Part shown: piece after piece, positions 3,459 through 19,022 of the stretch
Layout: each line of letters opens with the position of its first letter
How positions within the stretch are numbered: position 1 is the first letter of the stretch
From: an uncultured virus (IMG/VR IMGVR_UViG_3300042317_001647)
Taxonomy: Duplodnaviria; Heunggongvirae; Uroviricota; Caudoviricetes
DNA length: 20,000 nucleotides
Virus record (IMG/VR): IMGVR_UViG_3300042317_001647
Location: 53,003 to 73,002 of that record
Strand: one strand, 5' to 3'
The notes under the pieces: generated by a model
Database searches by the model: none
What the model saw: only the letters and a program-made list of their open reading frames with translations
What the model was told of the DNA's origin: nothing
Program-made: the position numbers and the translations under genes

Positions 3459-4418
3459 TCAAGGTCTTCGTACAATATTTATCCATTTTGTACGAAGATT
3501 AGTTGCTCTGTTTTTTGCCAATAATGATTTCATTTTAGAAATATAAGAATTAAATTCTTCATCATTCATTGAAGCATATTTTCTTCCCATTATTTCTTGT
3601 TGGTTGGTTTTCTTTCCTTTTTTGGCTATACTTATTTTAGCACCAAAATCTTCAGCCTTTTTAATACCTTTACTTTTTTCACTCATCTTCTTTCTTGTTT
3701 CATCAGATATTACTCTTCCTTTACCGGCTTCTCCAATTTTTCGTTTGGTGAGTTCAGAGTGCTTATACGTTTTTCCTATATACCATCCTTCACCCGGGCA
3801 GTCGTTTGAAAATGTATCTTCTATACCGTTCGTCCAACATTTTCTCCCTTTTACATTAGTATTACCAAGTTGTGCCAATCTTGATTTTTCAATAGAAATC
3901 GGGCATTTCTTTCTTCCAGTATTATATTTTATTACTGCTTCTATTGCAGCTGCAGATGGTTTTCGCCCTTTATTAGAAGCTGATATTTTATCTTTTGTTT
4001 CCTGAGAACATTTTTTACCCAATTTTAATTCTGACATATATTCAGACCAATTTATTTTTGCTTGTTCAAATTCTTCACCAGACTGTATTTTTCTATGCAT
4101 GTCTAGAGTTCTTGCAGATGTCATATACCATAATGCACAAACCATTTTTGATCTATTTTTACCATCTGTCATTTCTAGTAATAATTTATGACAATTATAA
4201 TGTTCTTCTGCTGTCAATAAAACTTTGTTCCATAATGATTTTTTATATTCTGGAAATATTGATTTTGGTAGTACGTGATGCTCTTCGTAATATTGATACA
4301 GAGGGTTTGTCTTTCTATATTTTTTACGAGGTTGTTGAATTGCATATTCTATTATAGTATAATAGTGTTGTGTTGCTAAATTAGCAGCAAACACACCTTG
4401 ATGTTGATAAATATTCAT
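3459..4418 (-). CDS. HNH homing endonuclease with NUMOD3 DNA-binding repeats
   Basis: EEHHVLPKS...LTAEEHYNCHKLL HNH core; repeated SQETKDKIS / HSELTKRKIG / SDETRKKMSE NUMOD3-like motifs; GGAG RBS upstream. Confidence 0.9.
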   Translation of the reverse strand: MNIYQHQGVFAANLATQHYYTIIEYAIQQPRKKYRKTNPLYQYYEEHHVLPKSIFPEYKKSLWNKVLLTAEEHYNCHKLLLEMTDGKNRSKMVCALWYMTSARTLDMHRKIQSGEEFEQAKINWSEYMSELKLGKKCSQETKDKISASNKGRKPSAAAIEAVIKYNTGRKKCPISIEKSRLAQLGNTNVKGRKCWTNGIEDTFSNDCPGEGWYIGKTYKHSELTKRKIGEAGKGRVISDETRKKMSEKSKGIKKAEDFGAKISIAKKGKKTNQQEIMGRKYASMNDEEFNSYISKMKSLLAKNRATNLRTKWINIVRRP

Positions 4419-4486
4419 GTTGATACTCCTGTAAAGTATTAAAGTAGTTGGGAATCCCCATTCCGCGAACTACATTCTTATTTATC
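4419..4486 (-). promoter_or_regulatory. Late-type box plus two hairpins in the HNH leader, the second covering the RBS
   Basis: Minus strand reads GATAAATA..GTAGTT-CGC-GGAAT-GGGG-ATTCC-C-AACTAC..TTAATACT-TTACAGG-AGTATCAA-C-ATG. Confidence 0.6.
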
Positions 4487-4735
4487 ATTTTTTTGTTCAC
4501 TTTCTCGCATTTGAAGAACTGTATTCAATTTTGCAGTAATTCGAAGGCAATCCGCATCAACTAGACGAATTTTATCAATTAGTGAAATTAATTCTTTATT
4601 TGCATCTACCAGTACCGGATTAATCTCATTTATTGTAAAATCCCAAACATATTTCACCATTTTCAACATATATCCTGCGGCAATTATTGGAAATCCATAA
4701 CGATTTATAATATCTGCTATTTGTGTTATATCCAT
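4478..4735 (-). CDS. Small single-TM coiled-coil protein (paralog 3)
   Basis: GFPIIAA TM motif followed by a heptad region; abuts the neighbouring ORF. Confidence 0.75.
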   Translation of the reverse strand: MDITQIADIINRYGFPIIAAGYMLKMVKYVWDFTINEINPVLVDANKELISLIDKIRLVDADCLRITAKLNTVLQMRESEQKNDK

Positions 4736-5489: not shown

Positions 5490-5517
5490 TTGACATCACG
5501 TTTGGCTGATGTATAAT
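5490..5517 (+). promoter_or_regulatory. sigma70-type promoter with internal inverted repeat
   Basis: TTGACA-N16-TATAAT; ACATCA/TGATGT inverted repeat overlapping both hexamers. Confidence 0.7.
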
Positions 5518-5657: not shown

Positions 5658-5897
5658 ATAGTCTAACTTAAATCTGGTACATAGTATAAATGATCAGGAG
5701 TGGTACGCCATTATTGAACCATAGTTAGATATTTAATTTATCTATGCTAACATATAGAAGTCATAGAGTTCTATTTAGTAGCTCTACCTTAACAGGCTGA
5801 AGTCGCAAGGGTGTGCGGTATAGATATACAGAATTGTTGTAATTCCTTCAACGAGGAAGCGTTCAAGACGCGGGTTCGAAACCCGCCAGCTCCACCA
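5658..5897 (+). ncRNA. ssrA: tmRNA acceptor piece (permuted gene); 5' boundary uncertain
   Basis: Ends GAC-GCGGG-TTCGAAA-CCCGC-CAGCTCC-A-CCA, the canonical tmRNA 3' end; CGTTCAA, CCTTC and TTGTTG pair with the coding piece. Confidence 0.9.
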
Positions 5898-5980
5898 TAA
5901 GAACATAGGTTGGTATCAGAGTGGGGCCATAGCCATAAACTCCCTGCCCCTTAAAAGGGGAGTATCTATGTTTTTATGAT

Positions 5981-6197
5981 GGGGCTGTATTGGATTCGAT
6001 TGGGCGAAGAGTTAGAGAAGGCAACAGGAGAGATGACTGACCTAATCAGCATAAACATAGTAATCGCAAACGATTCTAAATTTGAATTCTACACTGTAGA
6101 TGGCATCTTTGATGCTATCGCTGCTTAATAACCAGCGAATTCTGGGGTAGGAAATACCTTATAACCAAAAATACCTAGTAGGGAGAAATCCCTACTA
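5981..6197 (+). ncRNA. ssrA: tmRNA coding piece, tag (A)ANDSKFEFYTVDGIFDAIAA
   Basis: Starts GGGGCTG..GGATTCGA; pairs with CAGCTCC giving G3.U70; resume codon GCA at 6066, TAA TAA at 6126-6131; tag ends in AA. Confidence 0.92.
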
Positions 6198-6204
6198 TCT
6201 TTTT
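6176..6204 (+). terminator. Intrinsic terminator after tmRNA
   Basis: TAGTAGGGA-GAAA-TCCCTACTA followed by TCTTTTT. Confidence 0.8.
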
Positions 6205-6229
6205 ACACATTCACATTCAAAAGGGTATT

Positions 6230-7369
6230 ATGAAGTCTTTTAAACCTGTTCAAGTGTCATCATCTGGTACTGAAGTTTCAGTTAAACAGTCATTTACACC
6301 AGTTTCACCTAAACAATTGTCAGATTTAGGCGCATCCAATCCTCGTGTACTCCAATTACTTTCAACATTTGATTCACCAACCGGGATTATCGATTACGGG
6401 GCGGATGTTATGTCAGATATTGCCAAAAAATCAGAAGCTTTATTAAATGAAGTCAAAGATGCTGACGTTGACTTCGTTGAACAACAGTTAACTAGTATTC
6501 TAACAATGGCGAAGACATTTCACCTGAATACGAACAATAATTCAGATTCAAATATCTCAAAACTCTTTGGAAAGATCAAAGAAAAGTTTATTAATGTCCG
6601 TGAACAACTTTCAGCAGAATTCACTGATGTGTCCACACAAATGGACAAAATTATTGACGAAATTGATCAAGCCAATCACAGAATTATTGCCAAATTAAAC
6701 GGTCTGCAAGTGCAATACCGTGAAAATTTGAATGAATATCACAGATTAGAAAATTTGATCAAAGATGCAGAAGAAGCATACCAAATAATGGCAAAAGAAA
6801 TTGAAAAAATGCGGGTTAACGCATCAGATCTCCTTGCCGCCGAAGAAGTTAATAGAAGTACAAAAAATTTAGATCGATTGGAGAAGAAAATCGATTATTT
6901 GAAGAAATTTCAAATGATGGCTATTCAAAATGCACCTTCAATTAGTCAAATGGAAGATAGTGCTGCAACATTACTCCAAAAATTCCATGATATCAAAACT
7001 ATGACTATTCCATTATGGAAAAGACAAATCAGAATGTATATAGATGGTCAAGAATTAAGAAAAAGTGCAGCATTAGCAGCAGCAGTAGATGATGCAAACA
7101 ATACTCTAATTAAAACCAATTCAAACATCATTAGTGCTAATTCAATTGAATCAGCAAAATTAAACCAACGTTCATTGATAGATGATGCTACAATAGAACA
7201 TGTACATCAAAACCTAATCAGTACATTAGGAGAAATTGTGCAAATAAACAATACTGGTAAAGAAACTAGAATTAAAAGTGCATCGAGAATGGATGAAATG
7301 AAGCGCATGTATGCTTCCATTTCATCTAATGCTGGACGGACCACTATTGCAGGACCAAAAACCCATTAA
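6230..7369 (+). CDS. Toxic anion resistance protein (TelA/KlaB family)
   Basis: Coiled-coil protein with IDYGA, QNAPSI, TIPLWK and NQRSLID motifs typical of TelA. Confidence 0.85.
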   Translation: MKSFKPVQVSSSGTEVSVKQSFTPVSPKQLSDLGASNPRVLQLLSTFDSPTGIIDYGADVMSDIAKKSEALLNEVKDADVDFVEQQLTSILTMAKTFHLNTNNNSDSNISKLFGKIKEKFINVREQLSAEFTDVSTQMDKIIDEIDQANHRIIAKLNGLQVQYRENLNEYHRLENLIKDAEEAYQIMAKEIEKMRVNASDLLAAEEVNRSTKNLDRLEKKIDYLKKFQMMAIQNAPSISQMEDSAATLLQKFHDIKTMTIPLWKRQIRMYIDGQELRKSAALAAAVDDANNTLIKTNSNIISANSIESAKLNQRSLIDDATIEHVHQNLISTLGEIVQINNTGKETRIKSASRMDEMKRMYASISSNAGRTTIAGPKTH

Positions 7370-7399
7370 TTTTTTAACAATCAACCGAGATAAGTAAAA

Positions 7400-8080
7400 A
7401 TGGCTATTGATTTAACTAAAAGAGCAGAAAAAGTAGGTATCATCCTAACTAAAAAACAAATCCGTGACATTCCATGCCAAGTAAAACTGGCAATTGATCG
7501 CAGTGGGTCCATGAATACCCTATATCGCAACAAAGTCGTTCAAGATGTGGTAGAACGAGTGCTAGCAATTGGTATGAACATCGATAAAGATAAAATTATT
7601 GACATTTGGGCATTTCATAATGATTCATTTGAGCTGCCATCAGTCAATATTAGCAACATCGAAGACTTTGTTGACCGTGAAATCGTCAAAAAAATTAGTG
7701 AAGGTGGTACAGAGTATGCACCAGTCATGAAAGACATCGTTAATAGTGCCGCACCAGTACAAACTGGCCTATTTGGGAAGTTGTTTGGGAAGAAATCTAA
7801 TTCAACTGACCCATCATTAGCTATTTTCATCACCGATGGCGAGAATTTCGATCAACAAGCAACTGAAAAGGTTATCATAGAATCACAATCTAAAGATTTA
7901 TATTGGGTTTTGATCGGTATTGGTGGTGGGAACTTCTCATTTATCGAATATTTGGGCGAAAAATACCCAAATGCCGGTTATTTGAAGATAGATGATATCG
8001 AAAGTATCAGTGATGAAGACTTATATGAAGACATTATCAGCCAAGAATTTGCTGATTGGGTCGGAAAGTTTAAAAAATAA
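7400..8080 (+). CDS. vWA-domain protein of ter clusters
   Basis: MIDAS motif DRSGSM, GGTEYAP, FITDGE, WVLIGIG. Confidence 0.88.
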   Translation: MAIDLTKRAEKVGIILTKKQIRDIPCQVKLAIDRSGSMNTLYRNKVVQDVVERVLAIGMNIDKDKIIDIWAFHNDSFELPSVNISNIEDFVDREIVKKISEGGTEYAPVMKDIVNSAAPVQTGLFGKLFGKKSNSTDPSLAIFITDGENFDQQATEKVIIESQSKDLYWVLIGIGGGNFSFIEYLGEKYPNAGYLKIDDIESISDEDLYEDIISQEFADWVGKFKK

Positions 8081-8108
8081 TTGACATACCTGAATTTACA
8101 GGTAGAAT
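8081..8108 (+). promoter_or_regulatory. sigma70-type promoter with palindromic site
   Basis: TTGACA-N16-TAGAAT; TACCTG-N6-CAGGTA palindrome in the spacer. Confidence 0.6.
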
Positions 8109-8143
8109 GAAGATTCTTTCAACAAACACACAGGTAATAATCA

Positions 8144-9151
8144 ATGTTACAATATTTTAAAGGTTCTTTTTTGATTGCTGGTATCGGTATCGTACTAGCA
8201 TATTTGATCGGTGGGCTCGAAGCAGCCTGGATCACGTTAGTTTTATCAATTCTTGAAGTTAGTTTGAGTTTTGATAATGCCGTCGTGAATGCACAAGTTC
8301 TAAAAGGAATGGATGATATATGGCGTCATCGTTTCATTACCTGGGGTATGGCTATTGCTGTATTTGGTATGAGAATGGTGTTTCCATTAGCAATTGTGTC
8401 AGTTGCATTGGGAATTAACCCATATTCATCATTCATGTTAGCAGTTAATGACCCAGAACAGTATTCTCATGCGCTAGAATCAGTCCATACCTCAGTCATG
8501 GGTTTCGGTGGCACATTCCTAATGATGGTTGCATTAAAGTTTTTCATCGATCATGACAAAGATACGCATTGGCTTAAACCAATTGAAGAAAGATTCACTA
8601 AATTAGGCAAAATTGAAGCAATACAATCTGCAATTACATTAGTATTGGTATATATTGTTTACAAAATCATCGGATCCACACATAATGAAACAGAAGCATC
8701 AGCATTCTTGGTCGCAAGTGTATTCGGATTAGTAACGTACATTCTTGTCGATGGTTTAGAAGCAGTAATCGGGACTGATGATGGCACGGTTACAGGTGCA
8801 GTAGCCAAATCCGGGTTAGCATCGTTTCTTTACTTGGAAGTATTAGATGCAAGCTTCAGTTTCGACGGAGTATTAGGTGCATTAGCATTGACAAACAATA
8901 TTTTCATCATCATGATTGGCCTTGGTATCGGTGCGTTATTCGTAAGAAGCTTAACATTACTAATGGTAGATAAGGGCACTGTTGATGAATTCATTTACCT
9001 AGAGCATGGTGCATTCTATGCAATATTTGGATTGGCTATCATCATGTTCGTAAATACTGTATACGAAATTCCAGAAAGCATTACAGGGTTGATTGGTGCT
9101 GCATTCATTGGTGCATCATTGATCTCTTCAATCAAACACAAATCAATTTAA
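8144..9151 (+). CDS. DUF475 / TerC-like integral membrane protein
   Basis: LEVSLSFDNAVVNA, LEVLDASFSFDGV and YLEHGAFYAI motifs; many TM helices. Confidence 0.92.
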   Translation: MLQYFKGSFLIAGIGIVLAYLIGGLEAAWITLVLSILEVSLSFDNAVVNAQVLKGMDDIWRHRFITWGMAIAVFGMRMVFPLAIVSVALGINPYSSFMLAVNDPEQYSHALESVHTSVMGFGGTFLMMVALKFFIDHDKDTHWLKPIEERFTKLGKIEAIQSAITLVLVYIVYKIIGSTHNETEASAFLVASVFGLVTYILVDGLEAVIGTDDGTVTGAVAKSGLASFLYLEVLDASFSFDGVLGALALTNNIFIIMIGLGIGALFVRSLTLLMVDKGTVDEFIYLEHGAFYAIFGLAIIMFVNTVYEIPESITGLIGAAFIGASLISSIKHKSI

Positions 9152-9174
9152 TTAAACTACCAAGAGGTAATAAC

Positions 9175-9744
9175 ATGGCAATTAATCTTGCAAAATCTGA
9201 AAATAAAGGTATCAACCTAACCAAATCACAACCTGCCATGGGAAAGGTAAAGGCAGTATTATGGTGGAATGTTCCAGATAACAATCCAAAATATGATTTA
9301 GATGTATCAGCGTTTGTTTTGAAAACAACCGATAATGGTCCGAAGTTGTTAGGTGATGACTATTTGGTGTTCTATAACAATGAAGCGACACCTGAAAAAA
9401 GTGTTTCAAAAACACCAGATATGCGTCAAGGTGGTACCGAAGAGGTTTTCATCGATATCAATACGTTACCAGCAACAGTTGATGAAATTTCAATTGTTGT
9501 AACCATCCATGAAGCTGTATCTCGTGGTCAGTCTTTTGGTCAGGTACCTGAAGCAGGTATCAAAATCTTAAATGCTGATACCAATGAGGAAATTGCATTC
9601 TATGATCTAGATGCTGACTACAAAAATGAAACAGCCGTTCAAGTTGGATCATTCTTCAAACGTGATGGACAATTCTCATTCCAGGCAATTGGAGCCGGGT
9701 TCGATGGTCTTGAGTTAGGCGATATCGTCAGCGGTTATCAATAA
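9175..9744 (+). CDS. terD: TerD-family stress protein
   Basis: MAINLAK, YDLDVSAF, LVFYNN, VTIHEA..RGQSFGQV, FQAIGAGF. Confidence 0.9.
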   Translation: MAINLAKSENKGINLTKSQPAMGKVKAVLWWNVPDNNPKYDLDVSAFVLKTTDNGPKLLGDDYLVFYNNEATPEKSVSKTPDMRQGGTEEVFIDINTLPATVDEISIVVTIHEAVSRGQSFGQVPEAGIKILNADTNEEIAFYDLDADYKNETAVQVGSFFKRDGQFSFQAIGAGFDGLELGDIVSGYQ

Positions 9745-10167: not shown

Positions 10168-10242
10168 GCACCCGAAGCTACTAGGTATAGCACAAGCCTC
10201 TAAAACTTGCGACAATGGGTTCGAATCCCATCGGGTGCACCA
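10168..10242 (+). tRNA. tRNA with CUA anticodon (amber suppressor)
   Basis: GCACCCG/CGGGTGC acceptor, GCTA/TAGC D stem, CAAGC-CTCTAAA-ACTTG anticodon arm (C31.A39 mismatch), ATGGG-TTCGAAT-CCCAT T arm, ACCA. Confidence 0.85.
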
Positions 10243-11584: not shown

Positions 11585-11613
11585 TAGACATTTGAGATCA
11601 GCTGGTGTATAAT
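11585..11613 (+). promoter_or_regulatory. sigma70-like promoter
   Basis: TAGACA-N17-TATAAT. Confidence 0.55.
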
Positions 11614-12751: not shown

Positions 12752-12850
12752 TGTAAAAAAATCTGATTTTTTAATAGACAGTCAACCAAATGGTACTAAA
12801 TACATTCGTAAGGCTTGTTTGAAGCCATTTTTCAGAAACTGATGAATTAT

Positions 12851-13303
12851 ATGAGTAAAAAAACAATTTTGATCATGGGATTACCGGGCTCTGGTAAAAC
12901 TACCCTAGCCAATGAACTAAAAAAGAAATTAGAACTTGCAGATTACCAAGTTCATTGGTACAATGCCGATGAAGTAAGAGAAAAATTTAATGATTGGGAT
13001 TTTTCATATGATGGGAGACTTCGTCAAGCACAACGAATGAAAAATTTTGCTGATGAGGTTGAAAATGGCTATATACTAATAGATATGGTAGCACCATTAC
13101 CTGAATTTAGGGAAATTATTAACCCAAATATCACAATATGGGTTGACACCATTGAAAAAAGCAGATACAATGATACAAATAAATTGTTCATTCAACCAGA
13201 AAACTATAATTTTAGGGTTACTGAACAAGATGCTGTAACATGGGGTGATAAAATTTATAATGAACTTCACACCAATGTAGTAGAATTCTTAACACTCTAC
13301 TAA
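12851..13303 (+). CDS. Adenylyl-sulfate kinase-like P-loop kinase
   Basis: GLPGSGKTT Walker A, NADEVR, WDFSYDGRLRQA, IWVDT. Confidence 0.8.
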   Translation: MSKKTILIMGLPGSGKTTLANELKKKLELADYQVHWYNADEVREKFNDWDFSYDGRLRQAQRMKNFADEVENGYILIDMVAPLPEFREIINPNITIWVDTIEKSRYNDTNKLFIQPENYNFRVTEQDAVTWGDKIYNELHTNVVEFLTLY

Positions 13304-13398
13304 AATATGCTGAAAAACAGCTATTTTGACTAGTAAATAAGAATTTTTACTAAATAAAAATACAATTATAAAAAAATAAAAACTTTTTTAAAAAGTGC

Positions 13399-13427
13399 TT
13401 GACAAAGAAACTAAATAATTGTATAAT
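13399..13427 (+). promoter_or_regulatory. Consensus sigma70 promoter of the attenuator leader
   Basis: TTGACA-N17-TATAAT with A/T-rich upstream region. Confidence 0.8.
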
Positions 13428-13478
13428 ACGCTTCATCAGTTGGGGTCAACCGATGAAATTAAAGGAAAATTGATACAA

Positions 13479-13616
13479 ATGGAAATGCAATCATTACATC
13501 AACAATTTAAACTACAATCAACCTTAAAAGGCGGCTCGATTGCGTCTGTATGGTGTGCATTTAGTTTAATTAATGATCGCACACCGGAGTATCGTGAGGG
13601 TTCTTTGAAGACATAA
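13479..13616 (+). CDS. Putative 45-aa attenuator leader peptide
   Basis: AAGGA at 13462-13466 (in-frame TTG 13470 is an alternative start); last codons overlap the antiterminator strand. Confidence 0.6.
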   Translation: MEMQSLHQQFKLQSTLKGGSIASVWCAFSLINDRTPEYREGSLKT

Positions 13617-13676
13617 TTTAATATTATAAGTTAATTTTTCAAAGAACCCTGAAAGTGAAAACTCTCAGGGTTTTTT
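13597..13676 (+). terminator. Mutually exclusive antiterminator/terminator
   Basis: 13597-13611 pairs with 13636-13650 (15 bp); alternatively AACCCTGA 13645-13652 pairs with TCAGGGTT 13665-13672 (GAAA loop) plus a T tract. Confidence 0.8.
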
Positions 13677-13704
13677 AGTTTTAGACTCCTTAAAAAAAAA
13701 GTAG

Positions 13705-13733
13705 TTGACAGACACAGAAACACAGATTATAAT
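13705..13733 (+). promoter_or_regulatory. Consensus sigma70 promoter at the head of the tRNA array
   Basis: TTGACA-N17-TATAAT. Confidence 0.75.
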
Positions 13734-13873
13734 ATGAAGTACAGTGGTATAGAGAATGAAATATTGGTCTCTATTAGAAAACGCGATTCTGCTCACCACT
13801 ATAAAAATGAGCTATTAATGAGGGCGGTCTAGGGGATGAGAAGCACCTTGTGTGGTGTGTGGAAAAACCTAGA

Positions 13874-13962
13874 AATATTAAAACACATTGAGAATAGTAG
13901 AATTTGATTTCTACGGAATGTAGACAGTGGATTTGAACGACCCACCAGTGTGTTTTAATATT
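13874..13962 (+). ncRNA. Long-stem cassette S1
   Basis: AATATTAAAACACATTG / CAGTGTGTTTTAATATT, 17 bp with one G.U. Confidence 0.5.
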
Positions 13963-14028
13963 AAAACATACTAGATCAGCATTAAGAATTACGGTTCTTG
14001 ACAAGTTAAAGTGAGTATGTTTTAATAT
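13958..14028 (+). ncRNA. Long-stem cassette S2
   Basis: ATATTAAAACATACT / AGTATGTTTTAATAT, perfect 15 bp. Confidence 0.5.
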
Positions 14029-14077
14029 ACACTCTTCACTGACTACGAATCAGTTAAAATGCATAGCAGGAGAGTGT
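14029..14077 (+). ncRNA. Mini-RNA displaying an Arg(ACG) anticodon stem-loop
   Basis: ACACTCTTC/GGAGAGTGT closing stem; ACTGA-CTACGAA-TCAGT inside. Confidence 0.5.
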
Positions 14078-14088
14078 TATAAGTTATT

Positions 14089-14181
14089 GGGTGTCTTGAG
14101 GCTATGGCGTGTGCCTCTCTTGACTGTAAATCAAGTCCCTCGTGGTAAACATTCGCGGTTCGAATCCGTGGACACCCACCA
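14089..14181 (+). tRNA. tRNA-Tyr(GTA)
   Basis: GGGTGTC/GACACCC, CTTGA-CTGTAAA-TCAAG, long variable region, T arm, ACCA; unusual 5-bp D stem. Confidence 0.9.
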
Positions 14182-14470: not shown

Positions 14471-14476
14471 AATTAT

Positions 14477-14576
14477 ATCTGTATAGCTCAGTCTGGTAGA
14501 GCACCTAACTATGTGGCCTAGGTAAACACATAGAGCATTAGGAGGTCGCGGGTTCGAATCCCATTACAGATGTCCA
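14477..14576 (+). tRNA. tRNA-like gene with a 29-nt hairpin insert in place of the anticodon loop
   Basis: ATCTGTA/TACAGAT acceptor, canonical D arm, CCTAA/TTAGG stem enclosing CTATGTG/CACATAG, TTCGAAT T loop. Confidence 0.6.
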
Positions 14577-14587
14577 TTATGAATAAT

Positions 14588-14666
14588 GGCCGATGGGACT
14601 GCATGGAGTGGTCACTTGCCTGTCACGCAAGATATCAGAGGGGATTGTTACCCCTATCGGTCGCCA
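14588..14666 (+). tRNA. tRNA-Asp(GTC), non-canonical T loop
   Basis: GGCCGAT/ATCGGTC, CTTGC-CTGTCAC-GCAAG, T loop ATTGTTA, GCCA. Confidence 0.8.
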
Positions 14667-14672
14667 AATTAT

Positions 14673-14727
14673 GGGGCAAAAAGATGAAATCCTGTCAAGG
14701 ATTTTAACAGCAATTATAGCCCCGCCA
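14673..14727 (+). ncRNA. Armless tRNA-like mini-element
   Basis: GGGGC/GCCCC-G-CCA; AAATCC-TGTCAA-GGATTT hairpin containing GTC; CAGCAA motif. Confidence 0.4.
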
Positions 14728-14742
14728 ATTTTTGAGGTAAAA

Positions 14743-15273
14743 ATGTTAGATATAACTATAACAGGATTATACGAAGCAAGTTTATGGGCACCAACCCATA
14801 CTAAAGTCATTAGCATTGTTGATCCAACTACCAAAGTATTTGAATGTGATGTTCCACATCATGTAGAAAGATTTCATGATATTGAAGTACCATTAGAAGG
14901 ATATCAACATCCTACTTTACAAAATATTGAAAATATTTTAGAATTCAGTAAAACATTTACTGATACTGATAAAGTTTTAATTCATTGTCATGCTGGTGTT
15001 AGTAGAAGTACAGCAACTGCTATTCTAGTACTAATACAACATGGCATGGGTATTAAAGAAGCGTTTGAGAAGGTTTATTCAATTCGTGATTGCATGAATC
15101 CTAATGTAATGATAATTAATTACGGTGATGAACTATTGGAATGCAATGGTGAATTGTCCGATTATTATAATAAATGGTCTGATGATAACCGTATAGAATA
15201 CGGACGATTTGGTGGACAAACATGGGATAGTAATACAGATGCTATGAAAAATATCTTGCAAATGTTCAAATAA
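14743..15273 (+). CDS. Cys-dependent protein tyrosine/dual-specificity phosphatase
   Basis: HCHAGVSRS (CX5R) and FHDI motifs; GAGG RBS before ATG 14743; the ORF-track start lies within tRNA-Asp. Confidence 0.9.
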   Translation: MLDITITGLYEASLWAPTHTKVISIVDPTTKVFECDVPHHVERFHDIEVPLEGYQHPTLQNIENILEFSKTFTDTDKVLIHCHAGVSRSTATAILVLIQHGMGIKEAFEKVYSIRDCMNPNVMIINYGDELLECNGELSDYYNKWSDDNRIEYGRFGGQTWDSNTDAMKNILQMFK

Positions 15274-16009: not shown

Positions 16010-16336
16010 ATGGACGAAGAAACCCGAAAGAAATTTTTTACAAAAACTGAAGATACCGGTAGACATGTTGTTTATTCATATCGAACTGGTAAAACCTACT
16101 ATATTGAAGTTATCGGTGATAATCACACTAAATGGGGTGATCTTAATCCGAGTACTGGTAAATTAGAAGGTAGTTATGGTAGTAAATATCGTGGTTCTAT
16201 CGATTCTAATGATAGTTTGATTACAGAAACCAATGGATTTACTAATATCACGGAATTACAGCCTGGATACAGTCCATATGCTGAAATTGAACGCCGTGAT
16301 GCACAATATCCAGATAAAATAATTGACAACGTATAA
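16010..16336 (+). CDS. Hypothetical phage protein
   Basis: AAGGA RBS; TGRHVVYSYRTGKTYYIE...WGDLNP. Confidence 0.8.
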   Translation: MDEETRKKFFTKTEDTGRHVVYSYRTGKTYYIEVIGDNHTKWGDLNPSTGKLEGSYGSKYRGSIDSNDSLITETNGFTNITELQPGYSPYAEIERRDAQYPDKIIDNV

Positions 16337-16359
16337 AAATGCTGTATAATTAACAGCAT
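16323..16359 (+). promoter_or_regulatory. sigma70 promoter with palindrome over the -10 (copy 1)
   Basis: TTGACA-N16-TATAAT; ATGCTGT-N7-ACAGCAT. Confidence 0.75.
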
Positions 16360-16368
16360 AAACAGTTT

Positions 16369-16431
16369 TAGGATACATTCAGCAAACAATTTACACTGAA
16401 CTTTTAATTCAACTAGTAAAAACGTATCCTG
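16369..16431 (+). ncRNA. CAGCA-stem RNA B, Lys(TTT) anticodon mimic
   Basis: TAGGATAC/GTATCCTG, CAGCAA, TGAA-CTTTTAA-TTCA. Confidence 0.7.
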
Positions 16432-16497
16432 CTATAACAACATAGGAAATAATTATGAAACGAAAGACAAAAACAGAAAAAGAAGGCAAGAAAATTT

Positions 16498-16573
16498 GGG
16501 ATCGTAGTTCAATTGGTTAGAACACCGGACTTTTAATCCGGGAATTCGAGTTCGAGTCTCGGCGGTCCTACCA
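16498..16573 (+). tRNA. tRNA-Lys(TTT)
   Basis: GGGATCG/CGGTCCT, CCGGA-CTTTTAA-TCCGG, ACCA. Confidence 0.92.
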
Positions 16574-18873: not shown

Positions 18874-18910
18874 TTGACAATGAATAAAAATGCTGTATAA
18901 TACATAGCAT
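18874..18910 (+). promoter_or_regulatory. sigma70 promoter with palindrome over the -10 (copy 2)
   Basis: TTGACA-N16-TATAAT; ATGCTGT-N7-ATAGCAT; near duplicate of 16323-16359. Confidence 0.75.
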
Positions 18911-18919
18911 AAACAGTTT

Positions 18920-18983
18920 TAGGATACCTACAGCAACAATCATACATTTGACAGCTAATCAAACCCGTAAAATGTGTATCCTG
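18920..18983 (+). ncRNA. CAGCA-stem RNA C, Ser(GCT)-like anticodon mimic
   Basis: TAGGATAC/GTATCCTG, CAGCAA, TTTGA-CAGCTAA-TCAAA. Confidence 0.65.
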
Positions 18984-19022
18984 ACAGAATATTCGAGGCT
19001 AGTCACCAGCGAATAAGACCAA

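Follow-up and report, generated by a model that had tools for sequence, protein, structure and literature searches.

In this article we describe a compact module at 13399-13733 of a 20,000-nucleotide (nt) stretch of DNA (hereafter the window) from an uncultured virus of the class Caudoviricetes (IMG/VR record IMGVR_UViG_3300042317_001647, positions 53,003 to 73,002), and we put at about even chances the reading that it is a ribosome-coupled transcription attenuator, flanked by two strong promoters in tandem, that stands at the start of a jumbo phage's transfer RNA (tRNA) array. The module consists of a promoter (P1), a short leader open reading frame (ORF) that uses all 20 amino acids, a long hairpin that begins inside this ORF, an intrinsic terminator that shares its base with the hairpin, and a second promoter (P2), after which the tRNA genes begin. 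What is new here, going by the DNA of its relatives, is that jumbo phages of two DNA clades have kept this module, and that in them it heads an array of ~25 tRNAs. The source record is a 73-kilobase (kb) viral contig of which the window is the final 20 kb, and we assign it to a jumbo phage because a contig of this size was rated only 20% complete; the DNA runs that contain the window are lake-water metagenomes. Phage tRNA arrays have been discussed as a means to bypass both host codon bias and tRNA-cleaving defences, yet to our knowledge hardly anything is known about how these arrays are controlled, and our literature searches found no published account of leader-peptide control of tRNA genes.

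Anatomy and conservation of the module

All parts of the module lie on the + strand. P1 (13399-13427) matches TTGACA-17-TATAAT at 12/12 positions and transcription probably starts near 13434; both hexamers are kept in both clades and the spacer is variable. The transcript would open with a terminal hairpin (13434-13455, a 9-base-pair (bp) stem with one A-C mismatch and a GGGT loop), probably a stabiliser of the 5' end, which is present in the minimum free energy (MFE) folds of both clades, where one pair changes from U-A to A-U and wobble changes preserve others. It is followed by a Shine-Dalgarno-like AAGGA (13462-13466), kept in both clades, and by the leader ORF, which runs from the ATG at 13479 to the TAA at 13616 and spells all 20 residue types in 45 codons. 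Immediately ahead of the start codon, TGATAC (13471-13476) can form a long-range helix with GTATCG (13589-13594), which falls in codons 37-39 and is written with identical codons in both clades; this helix encloses the ORF body, abuts the start codon, and is found in the MFE folds of both clades as well as in the consensus fold, being invariant in 5/5 sequences. The next codons, 40-45, form the 5' arm of the long hairpin (13597-13650), our candidate antiterminator, in which a basal stem of 15 pairs, one of them G-U (13597-13611/13636-13650), is joined through a 2x2 internal loop to an apical stem of 7 bp (13614-13620/13627-13633), with the leader stop codon falling inside the structure; at -23.6 kcal/mol it ranks first among the 12 inverted repeats in the 20 kb. 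The intrinsic terminator (13641-13682) has the stem 13641-13652/13665-13676 and then a T6-AG-T4 tract to 13682, with calculated energies of -17.8 kcal/mol for the extended stem and -12.0 kcal/mol for its G+C core (13647-13652/13665-13670); a simple terminator scan did not list it, its outer loop probably being too long for that model. Directly after the T tract comes the box AGACTCCTT (13683-13691), invariant in 9/9 aligned sequences and predicted to pair alternatively with the Shine-Dalgarno AAGGA or with GGAGT at 13586-13590, and about 30 nt past the T tract lies P2 (13705-13733), again 12/12 and with an A tract upstream, whose -35 hexamer is kept in both clades and whose -10 is weaker in the distant one. 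From its sequence, P2 would initiate transcription of the array without P1.

Most of this anatomy had been proposed in an initial annotation, made by a model from the letters alone, and has held up: both consensus promoters, the 15-bp pairing and the terminator are present, and the claim of 16 different residues in one stretch of the leader, which was also noted to include GC-rich codons, is correct for codons 18-38. The GC-rich codons in question (GGC twice, TCG, GCG, CGC and CCG) are scarce in the long ORFs of this phage, where TCG makes up 2% of Ser, GCG 6% of Ala, CGC 6% of Arg, CCG 9% of Pro and GGC 13% of Gly codons. The 45-codon leader with its 20 residues also stood, but the ribosome binding site assigned to it has atypical spacing.

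A blastn search with 13300-14100 gave no match among GenBank phages, and relatives were sought by protein and DNA-pattern searches of IMG/VR and of Joint Genome Institute (JGI) metagenomes. These yielded a close DNA clade of 92-93% identity (L018, L019/L020, L022 and L026) and a distant DNA clade (L027/L028, on contigs of ~300 kb, and L029-L031) in which identity to the window is 48% for the leader peptide and 70-84% for other homologous segments. The family was extended to 10 non-redundant leader peptides of 42-47 residues by searching 1.84 billion representatives with a profile and by a word-index search; DNA was read for the close and distant clades, and P0004, P0005, P0007 and P0011-P0015 are known as peptides only. 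Two more viral scans for the DNA of distant members returned only the same 7 contigs, a scan for the DNA of the 'PEYRD' clade found none, and the hairpin pattern had 0 matches in genome contigs. The single protein-pattern match in genome contigs (L048) was dismissed as false: it crosses a stop codon that separates two bacterial genes, and no tRNAs accompany it. Wherever enough of the locus is present, a tRNA array follows the module directly, and the arrays of two relatives each comprise 25 tRNAs for 19 amino acids over 11-12 kb.

The leader ORF is likely to be translated, judging from how it has changed between relatives. Its frame is open in 9/9 aligned DNA copies from the two clades, among them the 7 contigs re-found by DNA patterns that are blind to frame, and the other two frames have 3-5 stops each; the ORFs of the two clades differ by in-frame insertions and deletions of 9 nt in total; and the first two thirds carry synonymous changes, including a conserved serine written AGT in one clade and TCT in the other. 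Each of these features argues against an element that functions as RNA alone, whether by acting in cis on the untranslated array, as an anti-terminator or an insulator, or in the form of a small RNA, with an open frame that is merely tolerated. We consider that explanation quite improbable, although there are observations in its favour: the transcript 13434-13685 folds at -67 kcal/mol with a z-score of -4.6 (200 shuffles), that of the distant clade has a z-score of -4.4, and RNAalifold, applied to five distinct sequences, retains both the 5' hairpin and the TGATAC/GTATCG helix, predicts an irregular helix in the ORF body, adds a long-range pairing of AAGGA with TCCTT at 13687-13691, and counts five compensatory pairs in the 5' hairpin and ORF body. 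Likewise, a nucleotide-invariant block at ~13584-13716 takes in the hairpin arms, the terminator with its loop, the AGACTCCTT box and the -35 of P2, and an invariant terminator loop and box go beyond what simple attenuation would call for; the Shine-Dalgarno spacing is poor; and the different C-terminus of P0011, known from the peptide alone, could be a frame change over conserved DNA. However, Rfam has no family at threshold in the module (the best is His_leader with 23.4 bits against the 49 needed, E 0.25), and transcripts from P2 would not carry the element at all.

The end of the leader is where protein and RNA constraints have to be told apart. The C-terminus PEYR[E/K]GSLKT is invariant in 9/10 non-redundant members and the Trp is nearly so; the conserved positions outside the C-terminus are L6, H7, G19, W25 and S29. 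Where the two clades have the same residue, codons are identical for all of the last 9 degenerate positions (PEYR.GSLKT, 9/9) compared to 7/10 earlier in the ORF and to 56% and 47% in two neighbouring genes, and the identity of these final codons points to constraint at the RNA level exactly at the hairpin arm and the GTATCG helix. One peptide clade has two residues inserted between PEYR and KGSLKT, which fits two separate RNA elements (GTATCG and the hairpin arm) better than one peptide motif. It would be tempting to see in such a C-terminus, with a Trp 20 residues upstream and a stop codon within a hairpin, an arrest peptide that stalls the ribosome at the stop in response to a ligand and thereby forces termination; the identical codons, the insertion within the motif, and the failure of every tool used to match a known arrest motif make this highly improbable. 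The same two observations on the peptide end also count against a stand-alone small gene, in which P1, the ORF and the terminator would make a functional 45-residue peptide, the hairpin would be a 3' stabiliser or RNase III-type site, and P2 would simply be the promoter of the array. Conservation at L6, H7, G19, W25 and S29, outside the C-terminus, is what one would expect of such a gene; the 48% identity between the DNA clades, with a poorly conserved middle, is not. Nor do the peptides resemble anything familiar: six of them had no Pfam match and insignificant PHROG matches (E 0.2 or worse), matches in the ESM Atlas were limited to unnamed small-protein clusters, and AlphaFold on an 11-row alignment reached a predicted local distance difference test (pLDDT) score of 57.5 overall, lowest at the invariant end, with no confident fold.

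Competing structures and the position of the ribosome

In RNA free of ribosomes the long hairpin has a pair probability of 0.96-0.999 and the terminator core one of 0.001-0.24, and the MFE structure contains the hairpin and lacks the terminator. When a ribosome footprint was modelled by blocking the RNA from 15 nt before to 14 nt after the A-site codon, all 15 hairpin pairs were kept with the A site at codons 1-35 (a near-tie at codon 29 flips to the terminator), codons 36-38 gave mixed structures, and from codon 39 to the stop the full 12-pair terminator formed. In this model, then, the outcome of the scan is the geometry that an attenuator needs.

From these folds we infer the following course of events. 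RNA polymerase would start at P1 and produce a nascent RNA bearing the 5' hairpin and the short ORF; a pioneer ribosome that keeps pace and stands on the last codons or the stop would cover the 5' arm (13597-13611), leaving 13636-13652 free to pair with 13665-13676, and transcription would end at the T tract. With no ribosome, or with one that falls behind before about codon 37, the long hairpin, as the stabler structure, would form first and sequester the base of the terminator stem, and polymerase would continue past P2 to the tRNA genes. In addition, the helix between the start region and codons 36-39 would restrict translation to the co-transcriptional round; in trpL, too, there is a folding that would limit re-translation of the leader.

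Several observations weigh against this attenuator and we collect them here. The initial annotation had stated that the antiterminator excludes the terminator, which is too strong: of the 15-bp stem, 10 nt also belong to the extended terminator stem and just 4 nt (13647-13650) to the G+C core of the terminator, and this core together with a truncated 10+7-bp hairpin lies only 2.8 kcal/mol above the MFE, meaning that substantial termination is possible without any ribosome, and that a contest so narrow over the G+C core should have a graded effect on the efficiency of termination and not an on/off one. Its claim that the position of the ribosome decides termination finds partial support, in a model that switches at codons 36-39 in a contest that is only partial. 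Furthermore, what related phages provide is a retained residue diversity and an antiterminator pairing kept in both clades, but no covariation, given that the hairpin and terminator stems are invariant across the two DNA clades; the 13 innermost stem pairs are unchanged, the hairpin loops vary, the T tract has one change, and the one stem position that differs, in the distant clade, turns a G-U pair into G-G and so weakens it; covariation thus speaks neither for nor against the hairpin and terminator pairs. The folds of both clades contain no conserved pause hairpin to synchronise polymerase and ribosome (a local hairpin at 13551-13584 is not kept in the distant clade), and the ribosome-free fold, which contains the long hairpin, predicts read-through and not termination as the default in the absence of translation. 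The spacing from AAGGA to ATG is 12 nt (11-12 across the clades) compared to 5-8 nt for other genes in the window. Finally, in one relative the 13.5-kb array region counts seven 12/12 promoters in the orientation of the array, among them P1 and P2; with P2 and five further promoters inside the array, read-through from P1 could only add to transcription of the array, which would not depend on this switch. The DNA just past P2 differs among relatives. An ORF is inserted there, between P2 and tRNA-Tyr, in L018 (about 3790-4650), L022 and L026, and in its place the window and L020 have other DNA; the beginning of the array is a hot spot of cargo exchange.

Some of these same points speak for the stand-alone small gene introduced above: a terminator core that forms beside a truncated hairpin at that modest energetic cost, and variable cargo past P2. 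The unit is also self-contained, with P2 within about 30 nt of the T tract; a hairpin of 15+7 bp with an internal loop is of sufficient length for a double-strand-specific RNase; and other inverted repeats of 15-17 bp occur farther down the same leader region. Yet a small gene has no reason to keep invariant a more stable competitor of the base of its own terminator, nor does it account for the retention of all 20 residues discussed below, and so we regard it as unlikely, while still a serious competitor to the attenuator. The resemblance to RNase III sites is in any case structural only, resting on about two turns of double-stranded RNA (15 bp, the 2x2 loop and 7 bp). Phage hairpins processed by RNase III include the T7 processing sites and lambda sib beside the terminator tI, and the module shares with them a stem of ~22 bp that is interrupted by an internal loop and that borders on, and partly coincides with, a terminator; unlike sib, where the RNase III structure exists only in read-through RNA, the module's hairpin precedes its terminator and is situated in an ORF.

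Metatranscriptome contigs were compared with this region for four RNA runs, of which X16 and X17 belong to a single sample and X24 had no match. Contigs from one lake sample cover the ORF and, separately, a stretch around P2 and beyond: the contigs span 13427-13610, 13427-13599 and 13694-13932, leaving 13611-13693 uncovered and uninformative; with DNA carry-over possible, they do not inform on starts, ends, strand, level or translation. In one sample the contigs start at 13427, which hints only weakly at initiation from P1, and the ends at 13599 and 13610 lie inside the 5' arm, where contig ends prove nothing about cleavage.

Compared with known systems, the attenuator we propose would be similar in logic to the trp, his, leu, thr, pheA and ilv leaders, in which a promoter, a short ORF and a stem competing with a terminator let ribosome position decide. 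It differs from them in having neither a conserved pause hairpin nor an anti-antiterminator hairpin and in a predicted default of read-through when untranslated, which departs from the logic of trp and his, and also in that tRNAs and not biosynthetic enzymes lie downstream and that a full promoter follows the terminator. The arrangement also resembles bacterial ribosomal RNA (rRNA) operons, which have tandem P1-P2 promoters, are regulated at initiation and use boxA anti-termination: in both cases two strong tandem promoters precede stable-RNA genes, with regulation plausible for the first and basal expression for the second. In contrast to the rRNA operons, however, no boxA-like element is established in the module, the resemblance of the 5' arm to boxA being weak and judged by eye.

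A leader with all 20 amino acids

The attenuators of amino-acid operons carry one regulatory codon run, whereas this leader has no tandem repeats beyond QQ and GG and shows residue diversity in its place. All 20 residue types within 45 residues are found in 1.3% of protein stretches from the phage group and in 2.1% of random draws, and 7/10 non-redundant members of the family hold all 20. When residues identical to the window were held fixed and the rest redrawn for five representatives of clusters at 50%, the chances of completeness were 0.33, 0.035, 0.11, 0.025 and 0.16, yet 4/5 representatives are complete; at least 4 would be so with a probability of 4e-4 if the draws are BLOSUM-conditioned and of 1e-3 if they follow the background. 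A column-shuffle test reached 7 complete rows in 6/20,000 trials. Both tests are approximate, ignore shared ancestry among the relatives and were devised post hoc, so we take the retention of all 20 residues beyond chance as suggestive. Residues present in a single copy shift columns between clades, with Asp in three different columns, a Cys that relocates in P0010 where the usual Cys has become Phe, and a Val that relocates in P0015 and P0011.

The codons themselves may be matched to the arrays downstream. Both DNA versions of the leader contain codons for 23/24 of the tRNA classes in the relatives' arrays, and both lack AGA, AGG, CGG and ATA, which together account for 5% of the codons of long ORFs; random ORFs drawn with phage codon usage have both properties in 0.09% of cases at 45 codons and in 0.05% at 42. 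By a rough estimate, coverage of isoacceptors (both Leu, Ser and Thr classes) adds little beyond the presence of all 20 residues, because these residues are frequent, and we set it aside. One way to read the leader is as a pan-tRNA gauge, in which a codon for each amino acid is kept and codons unreadable by the array are avoided; shortage or cleavage of almost any tRNA would then slow the pioneer ribosome and give P1 read-through into the array. We hold this to be speculative and on balance improbable, a step below the small gene, although the statistics lend it support that was not expected. The initial annotation had suggested a general tRNA-pool sensor of this kind, and the completeness of 7/10 relatives and the position at the head of an array agree with it, but three members are incomplete (Phe is missing from P0012 and P0015, and Ala, Asp and Trp from P0005), the sole Tyr of the window's clade is at codon 38, where a stall would favour termination, and P2 could serve the array regardless. 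A strict sensor of all residues is further compromised by the 9 residue types that simply come with the RNA-constrained C-terminus, by the Glu and Arg of the distant clade, which occur only at or past the switch point, and by arrays without tRNA-Trp in one relative and without tRNA-Asp in the other (on contigs only ~25% complete) whose leaders still contain Trp and Asp.

In leader ORFs of the bmrCD and whiB7 type, ribosomes slowed or stalled by any cause favour read-through of the terminator. The Bacillus subtilis bmrCD leader (PMC4191407) and the mycobacterial whiB7 upstream ORF (PMC10274678) are attenuators that answer general translation stress, and unlike these systems, which govern bacterial resistance or stress genes, the module would have a phage tRNA array as its output.

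The surrounding island and what the module may mean

The surroundings of the module are an island of translation and RNA genes. Directly upstream lies a gene for a P-loop kinase (12815-13303, with matches to APS_kinase, KTI12 and AAA_33) and within the array one for a dual-specificity phosphatase (14593-15273); a kinase and a phosphatase beside tRNA genes are reminiscent of tRNA-repair enzymes. Farther upstream are a permuted, two-piece transfer-messenger RNA (tmRNA; 5784-6219) with the tag peptide ANDSKFEFYTVDGIFDAIAA and two 12/12 promoters ahead of it at 5490 and 5624, a tRNA with anticodon CTA (10168-10242), an amber reader that ARAGORN labels 'Pyl' and that is also found in relative L020, and a Polynucleobacter-1 RNA (Rfam RF01718, 11692-11847, 64.6 bits) with an 11/12 promoter at 11585, which may hint at a freshwater betaproteobacterial host. 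In the distant clade this RNA is 79% identical and part of the tmRNA, which adjoins the module's neighbourhood there, is 84% identical. The remaining genes include a CHASE2-adenylate/guanylate cyclase and a tellurite-resistance-type cluster (TelA, a vWA TerF-like protein, TerC/DUF475 and TerD) at 425-2494 and 6230-9744. The window has 7 sites with a 12/12 match to TTGACA/TATAAT, exclusively on the + strand.

From 14089 to the end of the contig there are 12 tRNA genes with small ORFs between them. The tRNA-Tyr (14089-14181, 93 nt) and tRNA-Thr (14476-14576, 101 nt) are unusually long, and the former is 83 nt in L018, L020 and L022 and 93 nt in L026, which suggests an insertion or intron in some copies. 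Between P2 and tRNA-Tyr, three overlapping inverted repeats of 15-17 bp (13874-13890/13946-13962, 13947-13962/13957-13972 and 13958-13972/14014-14028) may, by their sequence, form a second set of alternative or processing stems; the segment 14014-14092 is 95% identical in the distant clade, and one RNA-library contig has 40 other letters in place of 13962-14068, an apparent variant. Inside the array a repeated unit (16323-16435 and 18874-18985) combines a 12/12 promoter, whose -10 is located in the loop of an ATGCTG...CAGCAT hairpin, with a conserved leader and a stem-loop RNA of ~60 nt closed by GGATAC...GTATCC; it occurs twice in the window and 3-4 times in each array of the relatives (L018-L021, L023-L025, L039 and L040) and may represent a family of 'mimic' or Y-like RNAs. 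Kinship of these RNAs with the module was considered and is unsupported, as the local alignment scores were reached by 15 and 48 of 500 shuffles. A 21-codon ORF at 16456-16521 with 7 Lys codons and AGGAA nearby overlaps tRNA-Lys (16498-16573) and could be a codon-matched mini-leader or a mere effect of A-rich sequence.

What would such a module mean for these phages? Even without attenuation, a family that keeps all 20 residues in 42-47 codons presents an unusual statistical signature that needs explaining. If the attenuator reading is true, the module would be a compact and portable sensor of translation capacity, built with trp-style logic around a leader whose defining quality is diversity; and if the leader is indeed a pan-tRNA gauge, it would give jumbo phages a homeostatic counter to depletion of tRNAs by the host or to anticodon nucleases.

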